Shown here: positions 5,622 to 60,344 of the stretch, in pieces | How positions within the stretch are numbered: the first letter of the stretch is position 1 | Layout of the letters: every line of letters begins with the position of its first letter | Source of the DNA: an uncultured Candidatus Saccharibacteria bacterium | GTDB lineage: Bacteria; Patescibacteriota; Minisyncoccia; Phycocordibacterales; CAIRYW01 | NCBI GenBank assembly: GCA_964487135.1 | Contig: CAZAOU010000001.1 | Span: forward strand, 8,542 to 72,541 | Length of the DNA: 64,000 nucleotides | Direction: 5' to 3' | Program-made: the position numbers and the translations under genes | The notes under the pieces: model-generated | What the model saw: only the letters and a program-made list of their open reading frames with translations | The model's database searches: none | What the model was told of the DNA's origin: nothing

Positions 5622-6044
5622 ATGCAAACAAAGCTCATTCAGCTCGTGATCGTGCTCGTCGCGATCTTCGCCCCTCTCTCTGGCCTCAATGCCCAGGAGG
5701 TGGAAAAACCAAAATCAACCCCACCCGTGAATCTTCTCAAGGACTCTGTCTCTGAGACAATACCTATCAGTGTTCTGTCTGAGGATGCCAACGGGTATGT
5801 CGTTCGTGAGATTTTTGTCATGCAAGGAAAGAGGTTGGCAGTTGTCCAGCGAATCGGTGTAATGAGCATCGATTTTTCGAGAAATAGTGTCTCGATTTCT
5901 CAGCTCGGCGAATGCCTCGTGGTCAAGGTTCCTTGGGGTATACCCGAAGAAGGCGAAAAAAAATTTACCGGCTTCATTAAGAAGGAAGGTGGAAAGATCG
6001 GAATGCTCTATCCGATTACAGGTGAAGTAACTTTCTACGAGTAG
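5622..6044 (+). CDS. secreted hypothetical protein encoded in GC-richer island A
   Basis: signal peptide MQTKLIQLVIVLVAIFAPLSGLNAQ; GC-rich codons unlike flanking genes; the track ORF begins at GTG 5604. Confidence 0.45.
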   Translation: MQTKLIQLVIVLVAIFAPLSGLNAQEVEKPKSTPPVNLLKDSVSETIPISVLSEDANGYVVREIFVMQGKRLAVVQRIGVMSIDFSRNSVSISQLGECLVVKVPWGIPEEGEKKFTGFIKKEGGKIGMLYPITGEVTFYE

Positions 6045-6048
6045 TTCC

Positions 6049-6071
6049 TCGGCTTCATGCCGATTTTTTTA
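6049..6071 (+). terminator. rho-independent terminator (cggc-ttcat-gccg followed by T7)
   Basis: hairpin immediately after stop codon 6042-6044, followed by a T-run. Confidence 0.4.
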
Positions 6072-6671
6072 TACAAAATTTTTTAAAACTTCAAAATCTT
6101 TTTTAAGAGTTTCTTTAAGGTGTTGGTTGTAGATTGCAGCGGCAGGATGATAAAAAGGAATTATTTTTATCTTTCCATAATTAGTGTTTGCTTCGTATTG
6201 TTTTCCGTGTGCAACAGAGATAGGTTCTATATCTAAAAACAGTCCAAATTTTTCCATGATGTATTGCATAGAAAATCTGCCTAATGTCGCAATAATTTTT
6301 GGTTGAATTATTTCTATTTGTTTATCTAAAAACGGTCCGTAAGAGGATATTTCTGTAGGGCTTGGATCACGATTTTCTGGGGGTCTGTCTTTTACAATAT
6401 TTGTTACATATACATCTTCTCGTTTTATTCCTGCATGTGCTAAAAGTTCATCTAAAAATTTTCCTGATGCGCCACAAAAAGGTTTTCCATTTTTAGCTTC
6501 GTTTTTGCCGGGAGCTTCGCCGATAAACATTATTTTAGAAAAATGACTTCCCTCGCCTATGACCGGAAAATAATTATTTTCTTTGCGAAATTTATATAAA
6601 GGCAAAAATTCTGCCACCAAAAGTTCATCGCGAATTTTTTTTAGTTCATTAAATCGCTCGTCTTTATTCAT
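6069..6671 (-). CDS. uracil-DNA glycosylase, family 4
   Basis: motifs FIGEAPGKNEAKNGKPFCGASGKFLDELL and HPAAAIYN are typical of the UDG family 4 / SPO1 pol-related group. Confidence 0.8.
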   Translation of the reverse strand: MNKDERFNELKKIRDELLVAEFLPLYKFRKENNYFPVIGEGSHFSKIMFIGEAPGKNEAKNGKPFCGASGKFLDELLAHAGIKREDVYVTNIVKDRPPENRDPSPTEISSYGPFLDKQIEIIQPKIIATLGRFSMQYIMEKFGLFLDIEPISVAHGKQYEANTNYGKIKIIPFYHPAAAIYNQHLKETLKKDFEVLKNFV

Positions 6672-31525: not shown

Positions 31526-32104
31526 TTATTTTATCAGCTTTAAACGTCGTAGTCTAGAAATATTAATAGTGCCTTCTCTCTCAACCCTAAAGCCAATTTT
31601 TGGGTTATGGGAGAGAATTGTTGAAGGGGTGGTCTTTGTTCTTCCTGAAGTATAAAAATCAACCTGTGAGCCAAAATAAGCCTTTGCCGCAAGAACTCCC
31701 CTGGCAGGTGGCATTCCTTCAATATTAGCGCTTGGTGCTACCAACGGACCCGTTTTCGCAATAAGACTCTTTAATTTCTTGTTTTTAGGAAGACGAAAAC
31801 ACAAAGTTTTAGTTCCTCGGTGTAAATATTCAAATTTCTTAGATTGAACAGGAAAAATAATTGATACTGGCCCTGGCCATAATTTTGAAAGCTCTTTTGG
31901 AACATTTTTTACTCCAAATTTTTTAATGTCATCAATTTTAGAAATAAGAATAATAAATGGCTTAAGGGGATTTCTTTTTCTTACTTTATATATTTTCTCA
32001 ACTGTTTTTTTATTTTCTGCCTTCCCCACTAAACCAAAAATAGTGTCGGTCGGCATAACACCAATTCCCCCTTTTTTAATAATAGAAATTATTTCTTTTT
32101 TCAC
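31526..32104 (-). CDS. tsaC: L-threonylcarbamoyladenylate synthase (YrdC/Sua5 domain)
   Basis: GGIGVMPTDTIFGLVGKAENKKTVEKIYKVRKRNPLKPFIIL is the YrdC signature. Confidence 0.8.
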   Translation of the reverse strand: MKKEIISIIKKGGIGVMPTDTIFGLVGKAENKKTVEKIYKVRKRNPLKPFIILISKIDDIKKFGVKNVPKELSKLWPGPVSIIFPVQSKKFEYLHRGTKTLCFRLPKNKKLKSLIAKTGPLVAPSANIEGMPPARGVLAAKAYFGSQVDFYTSGRTKTTPSTILSHNPKIGFRVEREGTINISRLRRLKLIK

Positions 32105-34320
32105 ACCCTCATAATACGGAAAGTTCCAAATCCTGCAAGAATAAGACCTATAATAATTAATAATTTGGAATACAATTCTTTCGGTAGGGCTACAGAGGAA
32201 ACCCCAGCAACAAGTTCAGTATTTTTTATTGGTAAAGTAGTGCTAGCTGTTAAAGAGTCTTCTATTTTTTTTGAGTCCTCTGCGCCCAATACATCTCCAA
32301 CAAATTCATCCTCCTCAGTATTATTAGAAATAATATTTTTAATTTCTGGTGTAGTTGTTGAAGCAAAAGAAATTATAGTTGAAGTGGCTGATGTAGAGCT
32401 TGCAACACCAACAATTTCGCCACCCACTGTATTATTAATTACAGTATTCTGCTTAGAAACATTCTGCAAAATAGTGTCCCAAGTTTTTCCTGAAACAGCA
32501 GGAACAGCATAAGAAGTAGCCCAGATTCTATTGTCAGTTGTTTCTGTAGCATCCTTCATTCCACCATCTGATTGTTGTTTACTCCACAGATAGTCAAACG
32601 AATTATTTCCACTTTTCAAAATAGTTTCAGGATTATTTTCTAAAGCATAAAGACCCAAAACAAACCAAGCCGTTGAAGAAACAGGATCGACATTTCCAAA
32701 AGATCCGTCGTTATTTTGACTAGCTATCACCGCCTGAGAAAGATTTGCTTTTGCAGAATCTGCACCAGAATTTGAAATAAGTGATAACGCCTGCAAAGTA
32801 GCCCCAGCAGTATCAGGATCATTAATATTAGATATATTATTTAGAACGACTTCACCGGCCTTTTTTATAATATCTTCATCAGCCTCAAAGCCAACATTTC
32901 TTAAAACCAAAATTCCAAAAACATCATCATTAAACAGTCCTGCCTCGCCTATTTGATTACCGTCAAAGGAAGAAACTGTTTTGGAAATGTAATCTATAGG
33001 ACCATCAGAATAAGGATTTAAACCGAGTGCAAGCATTGCCATGACTCGTCTTTCATAATCAGTCACCGCACTTCCATCAAGAGAATCTGTTTTTAGAAAT
33101 TCTCTTAATTTATTTTTTGCATCATCATGCCCAGTTGATGCTCCGTATGCAATTGACGCCCAGTCGGTATACAAATCTGCCCCAAAACTTCCGTCAGTTT
33201 TTTGTTTTGAATCAAGAAAAGTGAGTAAAGTTTCAAGGTTGGGTTTATTGTGCGAAATTCCCCCTCCACCACCACCTGAATTATTTGTATTAGATTCTGT
33301 AGTTGTAGAAGTAGAATCTGTAGATGTTGCAGAAGAAGTTGCAACAAAATCAACAATATCGTAAGACCAAGTTGGATAATAATAATCATCCTTAAAACCA
33401 AAATAATAAGTACTTGTTGCTATCAAAGAAAACGATGACTGACCCAAAGAATCTGTTGTTGATGTAGCAACTTCAATTGGAGACCAAGGATTACTTGGAT
33501 CAGGTAAAGTTGCCCCTACAACACTTCCATCAATAGGTATCCAAGTATTGTCACTGTAACTGTATCTTTGAGCTTCAATTTTAAAAGTTGTATTAGTGGT
33601 TGTAGCAACATCAGGAACAACTATCCTTTTTGAATAACCAAAATAAAGATAAATTGTATCTCCGTTAGAAACAGAAACATCATCAACACCAACGTATGGA
33701 TAAGTGTCATTTACAACATACTGCCAGTTATAACATTCATTAGATCCCAAAGAAGCTATGTTGATACAATTTATAATAAATGAATCAAATGATGAATAAT
33801 ATGCTAAGTCAGAAATATTTAATTCTTCACTTAAAGCATCGGCTATAGACACTAAAGAAAGAACACTGCTAGAAGGAATGGATCGGGCTGTTCCAGTATT
33901 ATCCGTAACATCAATGTTTGGTGTCTCGGGCAAATCAACCACATCATCAAAAACAATATTTTCTCCATGTCTAACGATCACCCTAACACCTTGAGTGGTT
34001 GAAGAAGTTGATTCAGAAGAAAATGAGCTTGTTTCAGTTAATTCTTCAGTAGTTGTCGCTAAATTTATTTCTGGCTCTGTAATAATTTCTTCTGTAGTGG
34101 TTGAATTATCATTTTCTTCAATAATCCCTTGAGTCTCGGTGTTGTCTTCAACGGTTGAAGTTTCTAACCCTGAATCATTACTGTCAGTAACCACTTCTTC
34201 TGAGGAATTAGTTGTGTCAGTTTCAATAACAATCTCTTCATCAGCAAAAACAAATATTGGATTTAAAATCAAAATACCAACAACAGTAATTCCTATAAAT
34301 TTTTTAATAATTTTTTTCAT
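32101..34320 (-). CDS. large secreted, C-terminally anchored surface protein with Thr/Ser-rich linkers and prenyltransferase/squalene-oxidase-like repeats
   Basis: signal peptide MKKIIKKFIGITVVGILILNPIFVFA; acidic T/S-rich stretches and a poly-Gly run; repeated DGSFG/DGGM alpha-toroid-like motifs; C-terminal hydrophobic anchor. Confidence 0.5.
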   Translation of the reverse strand: MKKIIKKFIGITVVGILILNPIFVFADEEIVIETDTTNSSEEVVTDSNDSGLETSTVEDNTETQGIIEENDNSTTTEEIITEPEINLATTTEELTETSSFSSESTSSTTQGVRVIVRHGENIVFDDVVDLPETPNIDVTDNTGTARSIPSSSVLSLVSIADALSEELNISDLAYYSSFDSFIINCINIASLGSNECYNWQYVVNDTYPYVGVDDVSVSNGDTIYLYFGYSKRIVVPDVATTTNTTFKIEAQRYSYSDNTWIPIDGSVVGATLPDPSNPWSPIEVATSTTDSLGQSSFSLIATSTYYFGFKDDYYYPTWSYDIVDFVATSSATSTDSTSTTTESNTNNSGGGGGGISHNKPNLETLLTFLDSKQKTDGSFGADLYTDWASIAYGASTGHDDAKNKLREFLKTDSLDGSAVTDYERRVMAMLALGLNPYSDGPIDYISKTVSSFDGNQIGEAGLFNDDVFGILVLRNVGFEADEDIIKKAGEVVLNNISNINDPDTAGATLQALSLISNSGADSAKANLSQAVIASQNNDGSFGNVDPVSSTAWFVLGLYALENNPETILKSGNNSFDYLWSKQQSDGGMKDATETTDNRIWATSYAVPAVSGKTWDTILQNVSKQNTVINNTVGGEIVGVASSTSATSTIISFASTTTPEIKNIISNNTEEDEFVGDVLGAEDSKKIEDSLTASTTLPIKNTELVAGVSSVALPKELYSKLLIIIGLILAGFGTFRIMRV

Positions 34321-34807
34321 ATTTCCACTCAATAACATCACCCTCTTTTAATATGTAAGAAGAAACTCCGACAGTCGCCTCCTTTCCATTTATGTAATAA
34401 ATCCACGAATAACCGTTTTCTGCTTTTTTACCGTTTATTTCTTCCACCATAGTTCCTAAACCACTAAATTCTTTACCCCTAAAAAACAAAATTCCTTCAT
34501 TTTTTGCTATTGTGAGTGAATCAAGTAATGTATCTCCTGCTGTAAATTTTAAAGAAATTGTTTTTCCTTCGATAATAGTGTCTGCGTGAAGATAATTTAT
34601 TTTTTTGTCAGAAGCTTTTTTTATTTCTGTAGGTTTTGGGGTATTTTTAAAATCCTCATACGTTTCCTCATAATTGGAATTAACTTCTACGGATTGAGCA
34701 ACTTCATCTTTTTTAAAAAACAAAAATCCACCCCAAACAATCAAAATAATTCCAATAATAATTGAAGTTTTTTCTATTAATTTTTCTTTTTTGATTACTA
34801 TTTTCAT
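34304..34807 (-). CDS. DUF4430-domain protein (membrane-anchored)
   Basis: N-terminal TM helix; C-terminal GYSWIYYINGKEATVGVSSYILKEGDVIEWKY matches the DUF4430 beta-grasp signature; start at MKIVIKK. Confidence 0.6.
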   Translation of the reverse strand: MKIVIKKEKLIEKTSIIIGIILIVWGGFLFFKKDEVAQSVEVNSNYEETYEDFKNTPKPTEIKKASDKKINYLHADTIIEGKTISLKFTAGDTLLDSLTIAKNEGILFFRGKEFSGLGTMVEEINGKKAENGYSWIYYINGKEATVGVSSYILKEGDVIEWKYEKNY

Positions 34808-35018
34808 ACAACAAAAAAAACCGCCCGTCCAAAGCAGTTTCAAAATTTATTTTGCTATAAAAATTATTAGCAAAATATTTTCCTGCTCGGGATAATAAAG
34901 ATTTTCTAAAGATCGGACTTGTTTTGCTAAATTGCAAACTTTACCGTTGCGGCACAGCGGAGGAATCAAACCTCACTTCCATAGAAAACCTATTTACGAA
35001 TCAATGAACAATAATACT

Positions 35019-36988: not shown

Positions 36989-37024
36989 GCGCCAGCCGGA
37001 CTTGCGTTCGGCTGGCGCTTTTTT
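36989..37024. terminator. GC-rich bidirectional intrinsic terminator (gcgccagccg-10 nt-cggctggcgc, T6)
   Basis: 10-bp perfect stem followed by tttttt on + and attttttta on the reverse complement; marks the left edge of GC-rich island D. Confidence 0.55.
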
Positions 37025-37046
37025 ACATAGGCGATTTTGGTTGGTC

Positions 37047-38159
37047 TTAACCCCGACGATCCTTCCCGAGGAACACGACTCTCGGGCAAACCACTGTGGG
37101 ATTCTGGAAGTAAACGTTCGGCTGAATTAGCGCGTCCGTTGCATCTTTCCAGATCCAGTTTTGCGGTGAAAACTTCATCGTAACCGTCGGCGGATTCTTC
37201 AGGTTGTAGTAGCTGAAGGTTCCAGTAATTCCGAAGGATGTTACCCCTTCTTCGTAGTAGAGTTTTACCCCAGGAAACGTCACCTTGATACGATCGCCGG
37301 CGAGTTTAAACTGGGGCTTCACAGGTTTTGTTCCGGGAATAATTACCCCGTTACTGTCGGTAATCGCGACGTTAGTCAGCCCACTGAGGAGCTTCGAGTC
37401 GGCGACACTGAACCACAACTCAAACTCCATGTTCTCGCTGTGCACCTGCATATTCTCAACATTGACGGAAATCACCCCGAGCGTAACTCGGCGACCACCA
37501 ACCTTGAGGTAGTCAACCATCGGCGGAACGATACTTTGCCCTGCCTTGACCTGAACTCTCCCGCGCGGATAGTAGCCTGATACCACAGTGTGATAATTCC
37601 CCACCGTGCTCGCGTTATACATCCACCAGATCTCTGTGTTGTCGTCAGCGTCGAGGTAGTTCAAACTGACTCGAATTGTCTCACCGCCGTGTTGATATGC
37701 ACGACCACCCACGAGTCCGTAGACGACGTAGGATTGGTAAGCACCGTTCGGACGAATGAGATCATCCTGAATCGGCAGGACGAATTCGCCTTGCTGACCG
37801 GAAATAATCGGGAGTCGCCCCACGACTTTTTCTTTGATGTCGTGAACTTCCTGAACCTCGCCGTTTTTGTCGACAACTGCTTTTACGGTGTCATCTTGAG
37901 CGACAGCGACCAGGGCATCGAAAACTTCCGCGGGCCCACTGATGTTGAGGTGGAGAGCCGAGACGTCGCTCGGCCCAGTTCCGATTCCGTGATGAATCCG
38001 GAGAACCTCACCGAGGGTTCCGGGAACGAGATTGGTGCTCGGCAATTGAGCCCCCTCAAGGATTTCGATGTGGACTTTCGCCAACACCTGGTTGGGCGTG
38101 GCGATTAGGGCGAAGATCGTCGCGAAGGCGACGATCATAACAGACTTCAGTTGCTTCAT
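37047..38159 (-). CDS. secreted hypothetical protein of GC-rich island D
   Basis: GC-rich codons; signal peptide MKQLKSVMIVAFATIFALIATPNQVLA (start at 38159; the longer ORF runs to 38231); beta-rich, no known motif. Confidence 0.45.
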   Translation of the reverse strand: MKQLKSVMIVAFATIFALIATPNQVLAKVHIEILEGAQLPSTNLVPGTLGEVLRIHHGIGTGPSDVSALHLNISGPAEVFDALVAVAQDDTVKAVVDKNGEVQEVHDIKEKVVGRLPIISGQQGEFVLPIQDDLIRPNGAYQSYVVYGLVGGRAYQHGGETIRVSLNYLDADDNTEIWWMYNASTVGNYHTVVSGYYPRGRVQVKAGQSIVPPMVDYLKVGGRRVTLGVISVNVENMQVHSENMEFELWFSVADSKLLSGLTNVAITDSNGVIIPGTKPVKPQFKLAGDRIKVTFPGVKLYYEEGVTSFGITGTFSYYNLKNPPTVTMKFSPQNWIWKDATDALIQPNVYFQNPTVVCPRVVFLGKDRRG

Positions 38160-38377
38160 AGGAAAAACCGGCTTGTTAGCCGGCGTAGTTTTTTTTGCTT
38201 TGGGTTTTTCGTTTAACCTAAGGCTGTCCATTCGCAGGCAACAAGCTTTCGCTTATGCTTTTGTAAAGTACAACAAAAAACTGCCATTCAGCAGTTTTCC
38301 TAGGTTGTTGCGATTATAGCATACTTTTATAAATATGTAAATACTTAACTCTCCAACCCTTAGGTTAATTAAAATAA

Positions 38378-38406
38378 TTGACAAAACCTAATATAAATTT
38401 TATAGT
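38378..38406 (+). promoter_or_regulatory. near-consensus sigma70 promoter TTGACA-17-TATAGT in the AT-rich divergent spacer of island D
   Basis: -35 at 38378-38383, exact 17-nt spacer, -10 at 38401-38406; drives the 38514 gene. Confidence 0.5.
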
Positions 38407-38513
38407 ACACAAACGTTCTTTCCAGATTAAGACCAAAAGCCGAGTGGCCAAGGTTATCATCCTGCAAAGACCAAACAAGACCGAAAACAAACAGAAACCA
38501 CCGTATCAACCGT

Positions 38514-39095
38514 ATGAAAAACCTCACTGCCCTCGTCGCCCAATTTCCGGTCGCCGAGTTCAAATCACCAACAAACAAAGTCCAAGAAGGCGAAACCGTC
38601 CTCGGGGTTCTCCCCGACGATCTCAAACGTCTCTGGGGCTTCCTCCAGTCGCTTCGAGAGAAGCACAAACCTGAACTGAAGCGTCTCTCCGATGAGCACA
38701 TGAAACTGAACGCGGCCTTCTTGGCCGACCACATGACCGGAAGTCTCGACAAATCGGGCAAGCACAACCACGCGGCTTGCGAAGCCAGGCAACGCGAAAT
38801 CATGGACCTCGCAACCCAATACAAGGGCCTTACCGACGAGATCGACGCGATCGCGCGCATCTTCTGGGACTCGGTGCGTGTGGAGTTCAACGCCTTTGAC
38901 GCCGACCAGATCGGTCTCCGTGAGAAGGGTCAAGTCGTCGCCATGAAGAGCAAGAAATACGAGACGATCGAATTCGAGGGAAATTTCGCCGACCTCGGCG
39001 AACTACTCGAAACCATCAGTCGCGGTTTCCGCACGCCTCCGCGTCGCGGTCGTCGCACGGGCTTCTTCAGTCAAATCTTCGGCAACGGTCACTAG
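38514..39095 (+). CDS. hypothetical protein of GC-rich island D
   Basis: 193 aa GC-rich ORF MKNLTALVAQFPVAEFKS...; no recognisable family. Confidence 0.4.
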   Translation: MKNLTALVAQFPVAEFKSPTNKVQEGETVLGVLPDDLKRLWGFLQSLREKHKPELKRLSDEHMKLNAAFLADHMTGSLDKSGKHNHAACEARQREIMDLATQYKGLTDEIDAIARIFWDSVRVEFNAFDADQIGLREKGQVVAMKSKKYETIEFEGNFADLGELLETISRGFRTPPRRGRRTGFFSQIFGNGH

Positions 39096-39170: not shown

Positions 39171-41498
39171 CTAAACAATCTCACAAACTCCGGCAACACA
39201 CGCAAGCTCCTTCTTTACTTCTGTTTCGTCCTGCTTCTCGTAAGTAATTATTTTTGAGTAATCAATTTTAGGGAATTTTTTGAGAAGTTCTTCATATCGC
39301 TCTTTAGTAATTGTTTCGTAGGGTGCAAGCTGGTATACATGGTTTGATCGAGGCAAAAATGAAAGTCCTCCAATAATATCCCAGTTTTCGTAAAGCCAGT
39401 GTGCCACTGCAATCCATTCATCATCACCTATAGAAATAGTTACTGAAGGATTGTGTTCTGTAAAATTATTTTTAACAACTTTCCAATGCTCTAACTGTTC
39501 TATTGCAGTAACATCATCCTTAAAAATTGCTCCTTCAGGTGACTTCATTGGAAACTCAACCACATATGTAGTCGCTGTTTCTTTTGCTTGACCAACTTCT
39601 GGATGATATGGAACACCTTGGTCTTTAAGCATTTTAAAGAGTGCGTCAGTTGCAGAAATTCTAATTCGCTGGATGTAGAAAGGCGCATGTCGTGGATGCA
39701 TTCCAGAACCTGTATCAAAAGTTTTTGAAACTGTTCCCGAAGGCTTAACACAAGTAATACACGTAGAAGCACTTATACCAAATCTTTTTGCAAATTCTTT
39801 GTTTACTTTAATTGCTTCGTCTTTAAGAGCTTTCAAAACTTCTGGCTTTCTTACAACTGGCGAATCCCACTGTCCTGTAAGAGATACTCCAAGAAGTCTT
39901 TCTTGCTCGCAGTGTTCTTTCCATTCTTTAGAAAGATAAGGAAACTGCGTAAGAGATGACTGATATGTTCCAAGGATTGTTGCGATTCTTGTTTTTTTGA
40001 GAAGAGTTTCTTTTGTATCATTTTCTCTACAAATTACTTCTGAAAGATTACAAAATTGTTTTGATTGCAAAATAATTTCTCCACAAGGATTTGTTCCTAT
40101 TGATCCAACAATGTTTGTTCCTGTTGAATCAAAATATCCTTCAGTCTTTAGGAGTTTAAGTCGTCGCTCAGGAAGAGTTTGTGCAAGAGATCCTCTGTTA
40201 AATATTCCTCTTTCTCCTGTTCCACTCTTCATAAGAGCAGTCCACTCATCCAAAAACTCTGTTGCTGATGGTTTTGAAAGATACACAGCTGAGTTGTTTG
40301 CAAGACTTCGGTGAGGATCTGTGAGGAAAAATTGTCCTTTTTTACAATCTCTAATCTCATTATCATCCAAATCGGATAGAGAAATCATCGCACTTCTTCT
40401 TACCCCTCCAGAAACAACACAGTCGCCAATCATACAAATAATGTCGTGAACATCTAGGTTTGAAAGTCTTCTACCCTGCTTTTTTAGCATTTTTTCTCTT
40501 GTAAAAGAAAGAAGTCTTCGCAAAGGATCAGGACCTGATGATTTTCCACCCATAGTGTTTAGCCTTGCCCCTGCTGGACGAAGAAGAGAGTAGTCAAACT
40601 CTACATCTTTTCCCTCAGCCCAAGTTTTTAGTCCAAGCGCCAAAGAATCAGCCCAACCCTCTTTACTATCTGGAATGACAAACGATGGGAGTTTGTGTCC
40701 GCTCTGAACTTTTATTTGTGGAAGTTTTTGAACATTCTGACTTTCAACAGACCATCCTACTCCTGTTCCACACATTGATAGATACATAATTTCTGCAATA
40801 TCTTGAAAACTTGCTGGAGCTGTAAAAGAACAGTTATATACACAAACATTTGTCGCTCTCGCTGCTTTGCCAGCAAATTGAAGAAGTCTCATTGACGGCA
40901 TTGATTTGTTTTCTAGAATATATTGTCGAATTTCTGCATACTCTGAATCTTTTAATTTCTTTCCGAGATTTTCTTTCATGAAATCAATGTATCGTCCAAC
41001 AGTTTCAATCCATGTTTCTCTTCTTCCTTCTTCTGCAATCCATTTTGAATATGTTCTGTAGTATACAAATTCACCAAGCTCTGTTCTAAAATATTTTTTA
41101 CTATCTGTTGCAAGTTTTTTTACTCGCTCAGGAACCTGAACTCCTTTCTCACGAAGCTTTGAACGCTTCTCTCTATACAAAATATAACCCTTGGCTGTCT
41201 TTACATACTCACTAAGAATGAGTTCCTTCTCAACTGTGTCCTGAAGACCCTCAACCGTAGGTATAAAATTCTTGTATTTCTTAGAAATCCTTACAACATC
41301 AGCAAAAACCTTGTTAGCAACCATCTCCGCTTCCTTTAAAGAGCCCTCACCGTTTGCAACCATAGATTTATAGATTGCATTAACGATTTTTTTTGTATCA
41401 AATGGCACAATTGTTCCGTCTCGTTTTTGAATTTTTGAAACAAAAACTTGTTCTTCAACCTTTTTTGACTCTTTCTTACTTTTTTTGGAAGGGCCCAT
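39171..41498 (-). CDS. nrdJ: adenosylcobalamin-dependent (class II) ribonucleotide reductase with an N-terminal ATP-cone
   Basis: ATP-cone VFVSKIQKRDGTIVPFDTKKIVNAIYKS; active-site NPCGEIIL; C-terminal redox cysteines CVAGVCEIV; 775 aa monomeric architecture. Confidence 0.8.
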   Translation of the reverse strand: MGPSKKSKKESKKVEEQVFVSKIQKRDGTIVPFDTKKIVNAIYKSMVANGEGSLKEAEMVANKVFADVVRISKKYKNFIPTVEGLQDTVEKELILSEYVKTAKGYILYREKRSKLREKGVQVPERVKKLATDSKKYFRTELGEFVYYRTYSKWIAEEGRRETWIETVGRYIDFMKENLGKKLKDSEYAEIRQYILENKSMPSMRLLQFAGKAARATNVCVYNCSFTAPASFQDIAEIMYLSMCGTGVGWSVESQNVQKLPQIKVQSGHKLPSFVIPDSKEGWADSLALGLKTWAEGKDVEFDYSLLRPAGARLNTMGGKSSGPDPLRRLLSFTREKMLKKQGRRLSNLDVHDIICMIGDCVVSGGVRRSAMISLSDLDDNEIRDCKKGQFFLTDPHRSLANNSAVYLSKPSATEFLDEWTALMKSGTGERGIFNRGSLAQTLPERRLKLLKTEGYFDSTGTNIVGSIGTNPCGEIILQSKQFCNLSEVICRENDTKETLLKKTRIATILGTYQSSLTQFPYLSKEWKEHCEQERLLGVSLTGQWDSPVVRKPEVLKALKDEAIKVNKEFAKRFGISASTCITCVKPSGTVSKTFDTGSGMHPRHAPFYIQRIRISATDALFKMLKDQGVPYHPEVGQAKETATTYVVEFPMKSPEGAIFKDDVTAIEQLEHWKVVKNNFTEHNPSVTISIGDDEWIAVAHWLYENWDIIGGLSFLPRSNHVYQLAPYETITKERYEELLKKFPKIDYSKIITYEKQDETEVKKELACVAGVCEIV

Positions 41499-55475: not shown

Positions 55476-55940
55476 TTATTTTTGTTTTTCTATTTTTACA
55501 ATCTCCACATCAAATATAAGAGTTGACTTAGGAGGAATTACAAATCCACCTCTACCATCTGGAACTCCAGCATCACCATATCCAAACGAAGAAGGGATTG
55601 TTAGTTTTAATTTTTCACCGACTTTTGTTCCAGCAAGACCTTGATCCCACCCTTTAATAACCTGTCCTGCACCTAATACAAATGTAAATGGTGTTCCTCT
55701 ATCAACAGAACTATCAAATTTTTGACCATCCTCAAATGTTCCTGTGTAATGGACTGTCAGTTTATCTCCTGACATAACAGCATCACCTGATCCCTCATTT
55801 AAAACTTCTACTTTTACATTATCTTCCATTTGTGTTGTTTGATTACTTTTAAAAACTCCAGCTATGCCCCCAATTCCGAAAAAAAATAATCCGGCAATTA
55901 AGAGAGCAATAACTATACCTATATATTGTTCTTTTTTCAT
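55476..55940 (-). CDS. FKBP-type peptidyl-prolyl cis-trans isomerase, membrane-anchored
   Basis: FKBP core [42 protein letters not shown]...[10 protein letters not shown]; N-terminal TM helix. Confidence 0.85.
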
Positions 55941-55992
55941 AGTTTATACATTATATCAAAATTACAAATAAAAATAGAGGCGAGATGCCTCT

Positions 55993-56214
55993 TTACCAAC
56001 CTTTTCTGATTCGCGACACACCACAGAGATTGCTTAGTCGACTAATCACATGATCAACCAAAACTTTCTCATATCCCTCATCAAGAAGCTCACGCTCAAT
56101 GTCATCTAGTCTTGATGAGTCAAGCTTGCCATGATGATTTCTTTCTTTGCGTGATATTGCCAAAGCCATACTTAGAGATTTTACTGAAATCTCTACCGTT
56201 ACGGGATTATCCAT
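55993..56214 (-). CDS. hypothetical 73-aa protein (island G, second gene under the T-box leader)
   Basis: starts at ATG 2 nt after the stop of the upstream ORF (operon-like); MDNPVTVEISVKSLSMALAISRKERN... Confidence 0.3.
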   Translation of the reverse strand: MDNPVTVEISVKSLSMALAISRKERNHHGKLDSSRLDDIERELLDEGYEKVLVDHVISRLSNLCGVSRIRKGW

Positions 56215-56216
56215 AA

Positions 56217-56450
56217 CTATGACCAAGCTCCTGTGTCGTAAGTTAGCTTTACCACTTCCAGATGGGTTCCAACCAAAGTGTGCGCAATTGCTATCACCTT
56301 TCTTCTTGTTCTTGAATCAAGCTCAAGGCGACGTGCAGAACTTTCAATTTGTTCCGACATTTTGGAAGTATTGTTGGTTGGCTTCAGGGTCTCCACAACT
56401 TTGAGAGACAGAGAGACAATCTTGTTTACCTTTTTGGGGTTTAGTTTCAT
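56217..56450 (-). CDS. hypothetical 77-aa protein (island G, first gene under the T-box leader)
   Basis: begins 38 nt after the T-box terminator; ...RKVIAIAHTLVGTHLEVVKLTYDTGAWS; no family recognised. Confidence 0.3.
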   Translation of the reverse strand: MKLNPKKVNKIVSLSLKVVETLKPTNNTSKMSEQIESSARRLELDSRTRRKVIAIAHTLVGTHLEVVKLTYDTGAWS

Positions 56451-56480
56451 GTATTGTTGGTTGTTAAATGTTCAATTGCA

Positions 56481-56805
56481 AAATAAAAAACCGCCCTTAT
56501 ACACCTACAAAAAATGTAAGTGAATAAGGGCGGTTTTCTTTCCGCGGTGCCACCTTAGTTTAGAAACGCAAAATCCGCCAGAGGCGGAAATACATTCCTC
56601 TTTCATCAGCTTTTTTCCGCCTGAGGTCGGACAATACTGATTATCTCTATTACGGGAGAACCCGAATTTTCACGCTCCGCCTAAGCAGATTGCAAAAATC
56701 ATCCTTTTGTCATTTTTTATTTTTTGACAAAAAATCTGGACCCAACCCCGAAAGCTTTTGCCTCGGGATCCAAATGGATTTTTTAAGTTTTAAGGAAGGA
56801 ATCTG
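56481..56805 (-). promoter_or_regulatory. T-box riboswitch leader: promoter, Stem III, T-box sequence, antiterminator and intrinsic terminator
   Basis: minus-strand promoter TTGATT-16-TATAAT (+ coordinates 56812-56841). T-box sequence AACUAAGGUGGCACCGCGG (RC of 56542-56560) against consensus AAUUAGGGUGGNACCGCGG. Canonical antiterminator: A1 UAAGG / 7-nt bulge UGGCACC / A2 GCGG, pairing with CCGC-CCUUA. That CCGC-CCUUA is the 5' arm of the competing terminator AAAACCGCCCUUAU-23 nt-AUAAGGGCGGUUUU followed by a U-run (RC of 56481-56537). Stem III-like hairpin aggcggaaa...tttccgcct lies immediately upstream. Confidence 0.6.
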
Positions 56806-56852
56806 GCATGAATTATATCAAATTTAGCAAAAAAATCAAGTATAAAAAATGC

Positions 56853-56868
56853 GAGGTTTTTTGACCTC
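56853..56868 (-). terminator. hairpin gaggt-tttttg-acctc overlapping the stop codon of the chorismate-mutase-like gene, followed by a U-rich tract
   Basis: stem overlaps TGA at 56867-56869; RC downstream gcattttttatacttgattttttt. Confidence 0.35.
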
Positions 56869-58942: not shown

Positions 58943-59048
58943 CTCCCTTAACAACATAATTTTGAGCACGGATATCCTCCTACTGGCAGGATTCCTCGTG
59001 CTCGCGTCGGTCACGCTCGCAAGTCTCAAAATTATGTTGTTAAGGGAG
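58943..59048. repeat. perfect 24-bp inverted repeat with a 58-nt structured spacer
   Basis: ctcccttaacaacataattttgag (58943-58966) and its exact reverse complement (59025-59048); spacer contains its own sub-hairpin ggatatcct...aggattcc. Confidence 0.6.
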
Positions 59049-59147
59049 ACTTATTAGAATTACACACCTATCCTTTGACACCAAAAAATATAGGAGTAGT
59101 CTTTTATATTAAGAAACCCGAAACTCCAAACCAACTCCAAATACACC

Positions 59148-59801
59148 ATGAACATTCAAAACTGGCTGACCGTCCTCGGCTTGCTGTTTGCCGGCACCAT
59201 CGTGCTGGCGTGGCTTAGTGGCTACCACCGGCGGATGAATCTCTATTCGTCCTGCTCGAACGATCCGGACCCTCGCTCAAGATGGATCCACTTCGGATTC
59301 GCGCTCTGCGCCGTCGCGTTCGTCTCAACTGCTCTGGTGGCGCTGAGCCACAGATCGTCCGAGGCAACGACCTTCGAAAAAAAAGTGGAACGCTTGGGGC
59401 TGGCACTCCAAAAAGAGATCCGCCGAGGCGAAAAACTGGAAGCAGAAAACGCTTCGCTCCTGCAGCTGGCAAAAATCAACTTCCTCGCAATCAAGGAGAG
59501 CGAGGTTTTGAGCATTCAAGCTCAGGAGGAGTTGCTCGCGATCATTCGCGACATGCAAGAATCCAAAACTCGTCTGAAAGCTCTGTGCGACTTCCATCAC
59601 AACTCCTACGCCGACCTTTGGCAAAAGAACACCAAGGTCCAAGAGGATCTCAAAGAGGTGATTGATGTCCTGCGGGAACTCCACGAAGAGAACGAGGCAC
59701 TCCACGAGCAAAACGATGCTCTGCGAAACTTCATCACAGGCGATGAGCAGAACATCCCAACAAGGGATCCACTCACAGTCTCCGGGAAAATCAGCCTCTA
59801 G
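59148..59801 (+). CDS. membrane-anchored coiled-coil protein of GC-rich island H
   Basis: TM helix WLTVLGLLFAGTIVLAWL; second hydrophobic segment; long Glu/Leu/Lys heptad region; GC-rich codons. Confidence 0.4.
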   Translation: MNIQNWLTVLGLLFAGTIVLAWLSGYHRRMNLYSSCSNDPDPRSRWIHFGFALCAVAFVSTALVALSHRSSEATTFEKKVERLGLALQKEIRRGEKLEAENASLLQLAKINFLAIKESEVLSIQAQEELLAIIRDMQESKTRLKALCDFHHNSYADLWQKNTKVQEDLKEVIDVLRELHEENEALHEQNDALRNFITGDEQNIPTRDPLTVSGKISL

Positions 59802-59805
59802 CAAC

Positions 59806-59835
59806 GCTCCCAATCAAATGGGGCGATTTTTTTAT
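59806..59835 (+). terminator. intrinsic terminator after the island H gene (cgctcc-caatcaaat-ggggcg, T7)
   Basis: 6-bp stem with a G-U pair, followed by attttttt. Confidence 0.35.
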
Positions 59836-60344
59836 ATTTTTCTACTATCATACGCCCAATGCAAAAGTGCTTGCCTTTGTTTTGTATGACAACTAAAATC
59901 TCCTTTTTTACAATTATTTGTAATTTGAGTAATATGTCTTACCATTGCTTTCCATCTTTTTATTTGCCTTTTATCTTCTTCTGGAATTCTTCTTCCTAAA
60001 TAATACCTACAATACCACCCAAACCATCCCCTTGGATCATCTTTATATATCCATCCTTTTTTCTGCCACACAGAAAGAGGTTGACTTGCATCAACTTTAA
60101 AATAATTAAGATTAATATCTTTTGTTTTTGAAAGCTTTGCTTTTGCTAGCCAACTTTTTGGAAGCTCTTTACTCCTATCATTAAAATAGAGTCCCCCAAA
60201 AATACCAAGTTCAAGCATTTCTTTGGGAGTAAGATCTGGTTTAAATTCAGAATCAAAATTTTTGCCCTCTGGCTCTGTCAAAAAATAAATATAATTTTTC
60301 TGATATTGATCGTTTACAATAATCTTTTGTTTTCTTTTAGACAT
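59832..60344 (-). CDS. conserved hypothetical protein with a Trp/Tyr-rich basic motif (GWFGWYCRYYLGRR...DKRQIKRW)
   Basis: 170 aa; the motif looks like a conserved domain but I cannot assign a family. Confidence 0.35.
   Translation of the reverse strand: MSKRKQKIIVNDQYQKNYIYFLTEPEGKNFDSEFKPDLTPKEMLELGIFGGLYFNDRSKELPKSWLAKAKLSKTKDINLNYFKVDASQPLSVWQKKGWIYKDDPRGWFGWYCRYYLGRRIPEEDKRQIKRWKAMVRHITQITNNCKKGDFSCHTKQRQALLHWAYDSRKI

Follow-up and report, generated by a model that had tools for sequence, protein, structure and literature searches.

A putative tRNA-Trp T-box leader with a truncated Stem I in a Patescibacteria genome

Introduction

Can a T-box riboswitch control a transcription terminator when its Stem I is too short for contact with the tRNA elbow? 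The question is raised by a leader of about 320 nt in a 64-kb stretch of contig CAZAOU010000001.1 (GenBank assembly GCA_964487135.1), which is placed before two small open reading frames (ORFs). We call this whole stretch the window. All coordinates are window positions, and all features of the leader locus are on the minus strand (-). A previous description, made from the letters alone and called here the sequence-only reading, considered the leader a canonical, textbook T-box. Our results point to a different answer. The leader is very probably a tRNA-Trp-responsive T-box acting by transcription attenuation, in a subclass which is widespread in the Patescibacteria, or Candidate Phyla Radiation (CPR). 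The basis for this is given by sequence and structure elements, covariation, membership in a family of leaders, and complementarity of the codon and the discriminator with tRNA-Trp genes of CPR genomes.

A family of leaders with a short Stem I

We have gathered relatives of the leader by searching metagenomes with an exact pattern of its antiterminator helices (TAAGGTGGCACCGCGG-N4-14-CCGCCCTTA). The scan gave 79 loci, many of them from groundwater small-cell fractions. Most of these loci share the whole leader beyond the search pattern, and the window's CGGGUUCUCCCGUAAUAGAGAUAAUCAGU recurs nearly unaltered in over 25. In three loci of low GC (L105, L142 and L146) the similarity to the window extends from the -10 box through the T-box, with nhmmer E values of about 1e-13 to 1e-14. 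All these leaders have a common plan. The 5' part consists of AAAUCC, the 5' strand of an outer helix, UCCC with a short variable hairpin ending in GGGR, and the bulge UUGGG. The 3' strand of the outer helix, an optional hairpin 2 and GGAUGRYUUCUGC...GUGGAARY (Stem II) form the middle. The 3' part contains CGGNNUCYCCCGUAAY...GRGAUAA (Stem IIA/B), a linker stem, Stem III, the T-box with the antiterminator, and a long terminator.

An alignment of 28 relatives, from which the window was excluded, was used to build a covariance model of the 5' decoding domain (R1, 123 positions). RNAalifold gives 36 consensus pairs for this alignment, 29 of them with compensatory changes. R1 matches the window at 56784-56636 (-) along its whole length (model positions 1-123/123), with 73.7 bits and E 3e-15, and this is the sole match in the 64 kb. 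The match is an independent test of membership and places the window in the family: Its score falls inside the range of the other members (51-124 bits). In the 79 loci the model finds 73 further places.

Pairing in the 5' domain is well supported by covariation. In the alignment 96.8% of cells are paired, versus 35-55% with slid partners; both sides change in 29/36 pairs, and none of the observed measures is attained in any of 500 shuffles (0/500). On the other hand, the antiterminator helices give no information on covariation, because they were fixed by the search pattern.

The first element of the domain is a closing helix, P0 (56779-56701), where AUCC (56779-56776) pairs with GGAU (56704-56701). 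It was found by RNAalifold on the 28 relatives and placed in the window by alignment to R1; its four pairs covary across the family (4/4). P0 encloses Stem I and hairpin 2 as a three-way junction. Since the leader plan is shared across relatives, the first hairpin of the window (56775-56734) corresponds to Stem I. It has only 42 nt, with an outer helix AUUUGGA/UCCAGAU, an inner helix UCCCGAGGC/GCUUUCGGGG and a 4-nt loop, AAAA; there is no AG bulge and no distal-loop platform. This length is typical: The family median is 38 nt, and 55/58 members have 33-50 nt. Both sides change in 12/14 pairs of helices 2 and 3, which form Stem I. The predicted stem is too short for reaching the tRNA elbow and shows no conserved distal motif.

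Hairpin 2 (56732-56705) is inserted after Stem I and before Stem II, and is formed by UUUUGUCA, a 12-nt A-rich loop and UGACAAAA. It occurs in the family members which we call type A, and its helix (helix 4) covaries at 3/3 pairs. By inspection, type B relatives present a K-turn-like CC-AUU-GA...GA-GG; the window and the other type A members have the P0 three-way junction instead. A U6 run (56733-56728) comes straight after Stem I in the window, because hairpin 2 starts with UUUUGUCA; no such run is present there in relatives.

Stem II (56700-56665), placed by the alignments to Rfam family RF00230 and to R1, corresponds to GAUUUUUGC...GUGAAAAUU, with the conserved UGC...GUG. In the window it carries its own inserted hairpin, UCUGC-UUAG-GCGGA (56689-56676); both sides change in 6/9 pairs of its helix (helix 5). 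Stem IIA/B (56664-56643) contains the IIA pairing CGG/CCG, the F-box-like CCCGUAAU and a IIB pseudoknot, whose loop UCUC pairs with GAGA in AGAGAU (56648-56643). The segment CGGGUUCUCCCGUAAUAGAGAUAA of this element is kept in more than 25 relatives. All four pseudoknot pairs covary (4/4, window included): UCCC/GGGA, UCUC/GAGA, UCCU/AGGA and CUUC/GAAG are found. The linker stem (56641-56605) pairs AUCAGU (56641-56636) with GCUGAU (56610-56605) around a variable hairpin, and both sides change in 5/6 pairs (45 leaders, window included). Stem III (56599-56562), predicted from the RF00230 alignment and a minimum free energy fold, has the helix AGGAAUG/CGUUUCU and a nested hairpin, UCCGCC-UCU-GGCGGA. 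We have also considered a Stem I located in 56700-56600, with K-turn-like GAUGA motifs at 56702 and 56607. This was rejected, as the homologous leaders identify these places as Stem II and Stem III.

Two loci contain two family leaders each: L157 (5430-5604 and 6208-6312) and L125 (4482-4561 and 6232-6354). In L157 the first leader is of the Ser type (UCG) and the second of the Trp type, with a small ORF (5695-6111) between them.

Predicted specifier codon and cognate tRNA

Stem I has a 5-nt bulge on its 3' side, UUGGG (56745-56741). By a published rule, counting starts at the 3' end of the bulge and nucleotides 2-4 form the specifier (PMC7778990), so the codon is read as UGG (Trp, 56744-56742), followed by a purine, G. 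Essentially all family members have N-UGG-G at this place, with U, C or A as the first base. The bulge is U-UCG-G or U-UCA-G instead in L119, L157 and L138, the last of which precedes a gene for a SerA-like 2-hydroxyacid dehydrogenase. Trp-type leaders precede trpE in four loci (L084, L086, L103 and L145) and trpD-like genes in three (L085, L111 and L112). In L114 the leader is followed by a small ORF and then by trpB.

Trp and Ser tRNAs both carry G73, as required by the UGGC of the antiterminator bulge. Five related loci contain a tRNA-Trp(CCA) gene, and in 5/5 cases the discriminator is G73, which fits UGGC; a tRNA with G73 had already been deduced from this bulge in the sequence-only reading. 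The predicted specifier is UGG, which matches the anticodon CCA and the G73 of these CPR tRNA-Trp genes. Leu tRNA has the discriminator A73 and Gly tRNA has U73. Other frames of the bulge, UUG (Leu) and GGG (Gly), were discarded, as these discriminators mismatch UGGC.

A striking case is L104, where trpS, tRNA-Trp, the leader and the regulated gene follow each other on one strand. In two loci the tRNA-Trp gene lies about 110-120 nt upstream of a Trp-type leader, on the same strand: L093, 4279-4204 (-), and L104, 3178-3103 (-). With this arrangement, the sensed tRNA and its sensor may be co-transcribed.

The sequence-only reading had looked for the specifier in GAU-AAU-CAG, as Asn AAU or Ser UCA. 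UGG is found about 95 nt further upstream. GAU-AAU-CAG is not the specifier, because it is located exactly within the 3' strand of the IIB pseudoknot and the 5' strand of the covarying linker stem, which contains its AAU-CAG.

Terminator and antiterminator

The 3' half of the leader agrees with what had been described. Sequence inspection and the RF00230 alignment locate the T-box sequence AAACUAAGGUGGCACCGCGG at 56561-56542 (-). Together with the antiterminator it covers 56561-56525: Helix A1 is UAAGG/CCUUA (5 bp), followed by the 7-nt bulge UGGCACC (56552-56546), helix A2, GCGG/CCGC (4 bp), and the loop AAAGAAAA. The UGGC of the bulge is complementary to the tRNA 3' end GCCA.

The intrinsic terminator (56537-56480) has the 5' arm AAAACCGCCCUUAUUCACUUACA and the 3' arm UGUAGGUGUAUAAGGGCGGUUUU, followed by U6. 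Its pairing (AAAACCGCCCUUAU...AUAAGGGCGGUUUU and U6) reuses CCGC and CCUUA, the 3' strands of A2 and A1, so that it excludes the antiterminator. The folding energies are very different, -8.0 kcal/mol for the antiterminator versus -35.3 kcal/mol for the overlapping terminator. The terminator 3' arm and the U-run are present in the window and in 52/56 relatives. These features argue for a riboswitch acting by competition between terminator and antiterminator, as had been proposed.

A Shine-Dalgarno sequestrator of the translational class II type was not found at the end of the leader. In fact, the stem ends in U6, its helix has no Shine-Dalgarno sequence, and ORF1 starts about 30 nt beyond the U-run. 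In the relatives, as in the window, the start codon is found about 30 nt or more downstream of the terminator.

Conserved sequence, such as CCGGAACAG(G/A)AAGC...CCCGCA or CCGCA...GUUCUU, recurs in many relatives (L081-L159) 5-60 nt past the terminator. It lies ahead of the start codon, and may serve as an additional regulatory element or as a context for ribosome binding.

Proposed mechanism

We suggest the following mechanism, in which tRNA binding and the direction of regulation are inferred. Transcription would start at about 56805 on the minus strand. The 5' decoding module would fold into the three-way junction, with the 42-nt Stem I displaying UGG in the bulge UUGGG, and the anticodon CCA of tRNA-Trp would pair with UGG. 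The tRNA elbow would remain without contact, because Stem I has no distal platform. The ileS T-boxes of actinobacteria, which act on translation, compensate for their truncated Stem I by Stem II and Stem IIA/B (PMC11297988, PMC7583486); by analogy, these elements presumably reinforce tRNA binding in the window.

An uncharged tRNA-Trp would have its 3' end, G73-C-C-A, free for pairing with the UGGC of the 7-nt bulge. This pairing would stabilize the weak antiterminator versus the much stronger terminator, and RNA polymerase would continue into ORF1 and ORF2. When tRNA-Trp is charged, the terminator would form and transcription would halt at the U-run, near 56485. The ORF1-ORF2 operon would thus be induced by uncharged tRNA-Trp. 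If both ORFs are expressed as proteins, they would have a role tied to Trp limitation.

Locus and downstream ORFs

The order of features on the minus strand is: chorismate mutase gene, its terminator, promoter, leader, ORF1, ORF2, terminator, promoter motif and FKBP gene. The upstream gene (57157-56867) codes for a type II chorismate mutase, as expected from the first description (Pfam CM_2, E 3e-12), and ends in a terminator at 56870-56841. The predicted promoter of the leader (56839-56812) has a -35 box TTGATT (56839-56834), a 16-nt spacer and an extended -10 box TGaTATAAT (56820-56812), with 10/12 matches and the TG; the TATAAT had been noticed before. Homologous leaders L105, L142 and L146 have TTGACA-17-TATACT promoters at the corresponding place, 5-7 nt before a shared CCAGAU motif. 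The extended -10 motif AATTTGATATAAT occurs twice on the minus strand, before the T-box leader (56824-56812) and before the FKBP gene (55962-55950), which suggests a promoter form typical of this genome.

The sequence-only reading had placed the leader in a GC-rich island of deviating composition. We find a GC content of 0.40, versus about 0.35 in the background: There is no island of note. A mobile origin has not been detected either, as searches for phage or plasmid DNA gave no matches and there are no PHROGs matches.

Two small ORFs follow the leader, as had been described: ORF1 (77 amino acids, 56450-56217) and ORF2 (73 amino acids, 56214-55993), with a terminator detected by sequence scan immediately afterwards (55992-55976). 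The overlap claimed for them is only found if ORF2 starts at TTG 56226; with the ATG at 56214 there is a 2-nt gap. The first description also holds in that the target is not a synthetase, biosynthesis or transporter gene: Both ORFs are orphans. No family match beyond noise was found in Pfam, NCBIfam, PHROGs or PADLOC, where the PADLOC scan gave only a Cas10b match for ORF1 at E 0.018. Among 5.8 billion proteins ORF1 only matches itself. For ORF2 neither a word-index search of the same proteins nor an exhaustive HMMER search found any homologue, only spurious TPR/LRR matches. No relatives of either ORF are present in the 79 family loci. It had been suggested that the two ORFs might be a single frameshifted product of about 150 amino acids with an ACT domain, but the fused sequence shows neither ACT nor any other domain. 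Single-sequence AlphaFold2 predictions are three-helix bundles of low confidence, with a pLDDT (predicted local distance difference test) of 69 for ORF1 and 57 for ORF2.

Weight of the evidence

A scan with Rfam at the gathering threshold does not report a T-box anywhere in the 64-kb window. With permissive filters RF00230 matches 56719-56523 (-) at 39.8 bits, with E = 2.7e-07 locally and 2.5e-05 over the whole window. The match is beyond chance, although it is below the threshold. The score comes from Stem II, Stem IIA/B, Stem III and the antiterminator; Stem II, Stem IIA/B and the F-box are aligned with high posterior probability, while 87 model positions of Stem I are deleted. When the upstream leader is scanned alone, without the antiterminator, RF00230 finds neither a T-box nor a Stem I. 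Family relatives reach 47-55 bits or are missed. On the other hand, two canonical-looking leaders found with the same pattern in the same metagenomes (L150 and L139) reach 68-75 bits. The minus-strand match proposed as a check is therefore present and significant, while the gathering score is not reached. We have discarded the low score as a refutation: It is misleading, because the whole CPR subclass scores below the threshold. T-boxes are probably under-counted in CPR genomes, since RF00230 misses the subclass at its gathering score.

Several points should nevertheless be weighed against a tRNA-Trp T-box of this type. The RF00230 score of 39.8 bits is far under the gathering score of 93. The elbow-binding platform has been deemed essential in transcriptional T-boxes, which need fast co-transcriptional capture of the tRNA, and expendable in translational ones (PMC7583486). 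Our search fixed UGGC and both antiterminator helices, so the sample is biased to G73 tRNAs, and this bias partly accounts for the near-invariance of UGG. The tRNA-Trp gene of this genome is absent from the 64-kb window, and the G73 of the host tRNA is inferred from other CPR genomes because the gene lies outside. The U6 after Stem I might cause some premature termination, independent of tRNA. Finally, both ORFs are orphans, so their function gives no regulatory logic, and ORF1 lacks an obvious Shine-Dalgarno sequence and scores poorly as a coding sequence. We have used a codon-position Markov model trained on the long genes of the window, with scores in bits per 100 nt. Real genes have a mean of 9.6 and a 5th percentile of 3.0, shadow ORFs do not exceed 1.2, and the chorismate mutase gene has 5.5. 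ORF1 has -0.8, which is the best of its six frames but falls under the 5th percentile and is ambiguous, while ORF2 has +4.6 and is coding-like.

These properties of the ORFs would also be expected from a stranded or decaying T-box, an intact leader parted from its original target and followed by non-coding ORFs or remnants, with no current role. The orphan status of both ORFs, the score of ORF1 and its lack of a Shine-Dalgarno sequence speak for it, and so does the absence of the cassette from CPR relatives which share the FKBP-TGT synteny. We consider it unlikely. In the window all helices of the family model are intact (73.7 bits), and the promoter, the leader terminator and the terminator after ORF2 frame a tidy transcription unit. 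ORF2 has the score of a coding sequence. A search for remnants of the usual target genes of the family in 55900-56520 only gave noise. In addition, the genes under the closest leaders, L105 and L146, are lineage-specific and uncharacterised too, and a conserved ORF of about 75 amino acids is among them.

The first hairpin (56775-56734) resembles a terminator because U6 follows it. It is stable and lies between an A-run and U6, like a bidirectional terminator, so it might end an independent small RNA of about 75 nt, transcribed from the strong promoter, with the T-box driven by another promoter or unrelated. This is very improbable: About 70 leaders have a Stem I homologous to the hairpin and no U-run after it, the hairpin covaries within the junction closed by P0, it bears the conserved UUGGG bulge, and no second good promoter has been found.

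The least credible reading of all is that of a canonical class I T-box whose long Stem I would lie in 56700-56600 and whose specifier would be Asn AAU or Ser UCA: The 3' half of the leader is indeed textbook-like, and Asn and Ser tRNAs also carry G73, but GAUAAUCAGU forms the 3' strand of the IIB pseudoknot and the 5' strand of a covarying stem and is conserved regardless of the downstream gene, whereas codon identity varies with this gene at the bulge 56745-56741, and Rfam finds no Stem I.

Distribution and regulated genes

The closest matches of the TGT and FKBP proteins of the window are found in metagenome-assembled genomes of Taylorbacteria, Nomurabacteria, Paceibacterota and other Patescibacteria, with identities of 63% (TGT) and at most 68% (FKBP). 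The genome had been described as CPR-like, and these best matches agree. Every neighbouring protein is a singleton when clustered at 90% identity. Several CPR genomes retain the FKBP-TGT synteny; in these relatives (TGT relatives, 80 genomes) the leader, the chorismate mutase gene and ORF1/ORF2 are absent. Hosts of other family members have been identified by exact look-up of neighbour proteins: Candidatus Taylorbacteria (L104), Paceibacterota (L101), Parcubacteria group (L123), Magasanikbacteria (L114) and Patescibacteria group (L107). The subclass is therefore widespread in CPR.

Genes for a GCS2/YbdK-like carboxylate-amine ligase are the commonest targets in the family and under its Trp-type leaders (24 loci, including L081, L082, L096 and L098), followed by ELFV-type amino-acid-dehydrogenase-like genes (5 loci); GNAT, PPDK-like and aminotransferase genes are also found. 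The first two are not classical Trp genes; this hints that CPR have a Trp-related pathway not yet recognised. Small ORFs are recurrent in Trp-type operons: L105 (1983-2207), L146 (1369-1602), L092, L101, L114, L135, L136 and L140. Some code for a conserved protein of about 75 amino acids with a YEWW motif, others are Cys-rich (zinc-ribbon-like), with 80-138 amino acids. They recall the T-box control of anti-TRAP in B. subtilis.

Regulation in ultrasmall CPR symbionts has been described as virtually unknown (PMC11665869). We somewhat favour the view that CPR contain a large, undescribed subclass of terminating T-boxes which would read their tRNA without an elbow platform. In these symbionts with reduced genomes they would form a regulon for starvation of tRNA-Trp (and tRNA-Ser). 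Most of its genes would be non-canonical or uncharacterised: those for GCS2-like ligases, for amino-acid-dehydrogenase-like enzymes and for Cys-rich small proteins, together with the orphan ORFs of the window. Such a regulon would be a direct handle on how CPR sense the amino-acid supply of their hosts. It would also point to candidate genes for Trp salvage or starvation, ORF1 and ORF2 among them.

Other features of the window

Scans with R1 and RF00230 found no T-box at the alanyl- and leucyl-tRNA synthetase genes of the window. The leucyl-tRNA synthetase (16083-13216, -) is interrupted at residues 393-512 by an inserted NUDIX domain (Pfam E 8.8e-14), an unusual fusion. An adenosylcobalamin (AdoCbl, B12) riboswitch, RF01482, is found at 35001-34873 (-), where it narrowly exceeds its gathering score (54.7 versus 50 bits). 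ORFs 34304-34843 and 32101-34341 (DUF4430) follow downstream of it, and 39171-41498 encodes a B12-type ribonucleotide reductase. GC content is raised at 37001-39000 (0.49-0.53) and at 59001-60000 (0.47), versus about 0.35. The first stretch contains ORFs 37047-38231 (-) and 38514-39095 (+), which have no Pfam match, and the second contains ORF 59148-59801 (+).

Comparison with known T-boxes

The window shares many features with class I T-boxes (RF00230), which are found in Firmicutes, for example in B. subtilis tyrS and glyQS. These include the T-box sequence, the 7-nt UGGN bulge, the exclusive terminator with its U-run, Stem II, a IIA/B pseudoknot with the F-box-like CCGUAA, and Stem III. The codon is also placed, with a 3' purine, at the 3' end of the Stem I bulge. 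The differences are found in the 5' half and in the targets. Stem I of class I has roughly 85-100 nt; that of the window has 42 nt and lacks both the AG bulge and the distal-loop platform which docks the tRNA elbow. The specifier is in a plain 5-nt 3' bulge, whereas class I presents it in an S-turn internal loop. Where class I has its K-turn base, the window is predicted to form a three-way junction that includes an additional hairpin, and the targets are orphan small ORFs. For these reasons the leader cannot be called canonical.

Class II T-boxes, such as those of ileS in M. tuberculosis and M. smegmatis, also have a truncated Stem I without the elbow motif, and retain Stem II and the IIA/B pseudoknot. 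Their expression platform is a Shine-Dalgarno sequestrator, while that of the window is an intrinsic terminator with a U-run. The window also differs from ileS leaders in its specifier, which is Trp UGG and not Ile, in its Patescibacteria host, and in that the targets of its family are mostly not synthetases.

A parallel in gene content is the rtpA-ycbK (anti-TRAP) leader of B. subtilis, a tRNA-Trp T-box with a canonical long Stem I which controls a small protein. In both cases a Trp-specific T-box precedes small proteins, and not a synthetase or a biosynthetic enzyme. Anti-TRAP is a Cys-rich zinc protein acting on TRAP; the ORFs of the window lack a Cys motif and do not resemble this protein. 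We know of no TRAP context in CPR.

In a literature search of incomplete coverage, none of the papers dealt with T-boxes of Patescibacteria, CPR or Parcubacteria. TBDB mentions class I matches with a predicted truncated Stem I (PMC7778990), so truncated class I T-boxes may already be known in part. The combination of a truncated Stem I with a transcriptional terminator platform, as predicted here, is nevertheless a new variant of the transcriptional T-box. The family also lends itself to structural and kinetic studies, as a decoding module that is minimal by nature. In any case, about 70 terminator-type leaders supported by covariation, with a Stem I of about 38 nt, challenge the rule that transcriptional T-boxes need an elbow platform (PMC7583486).

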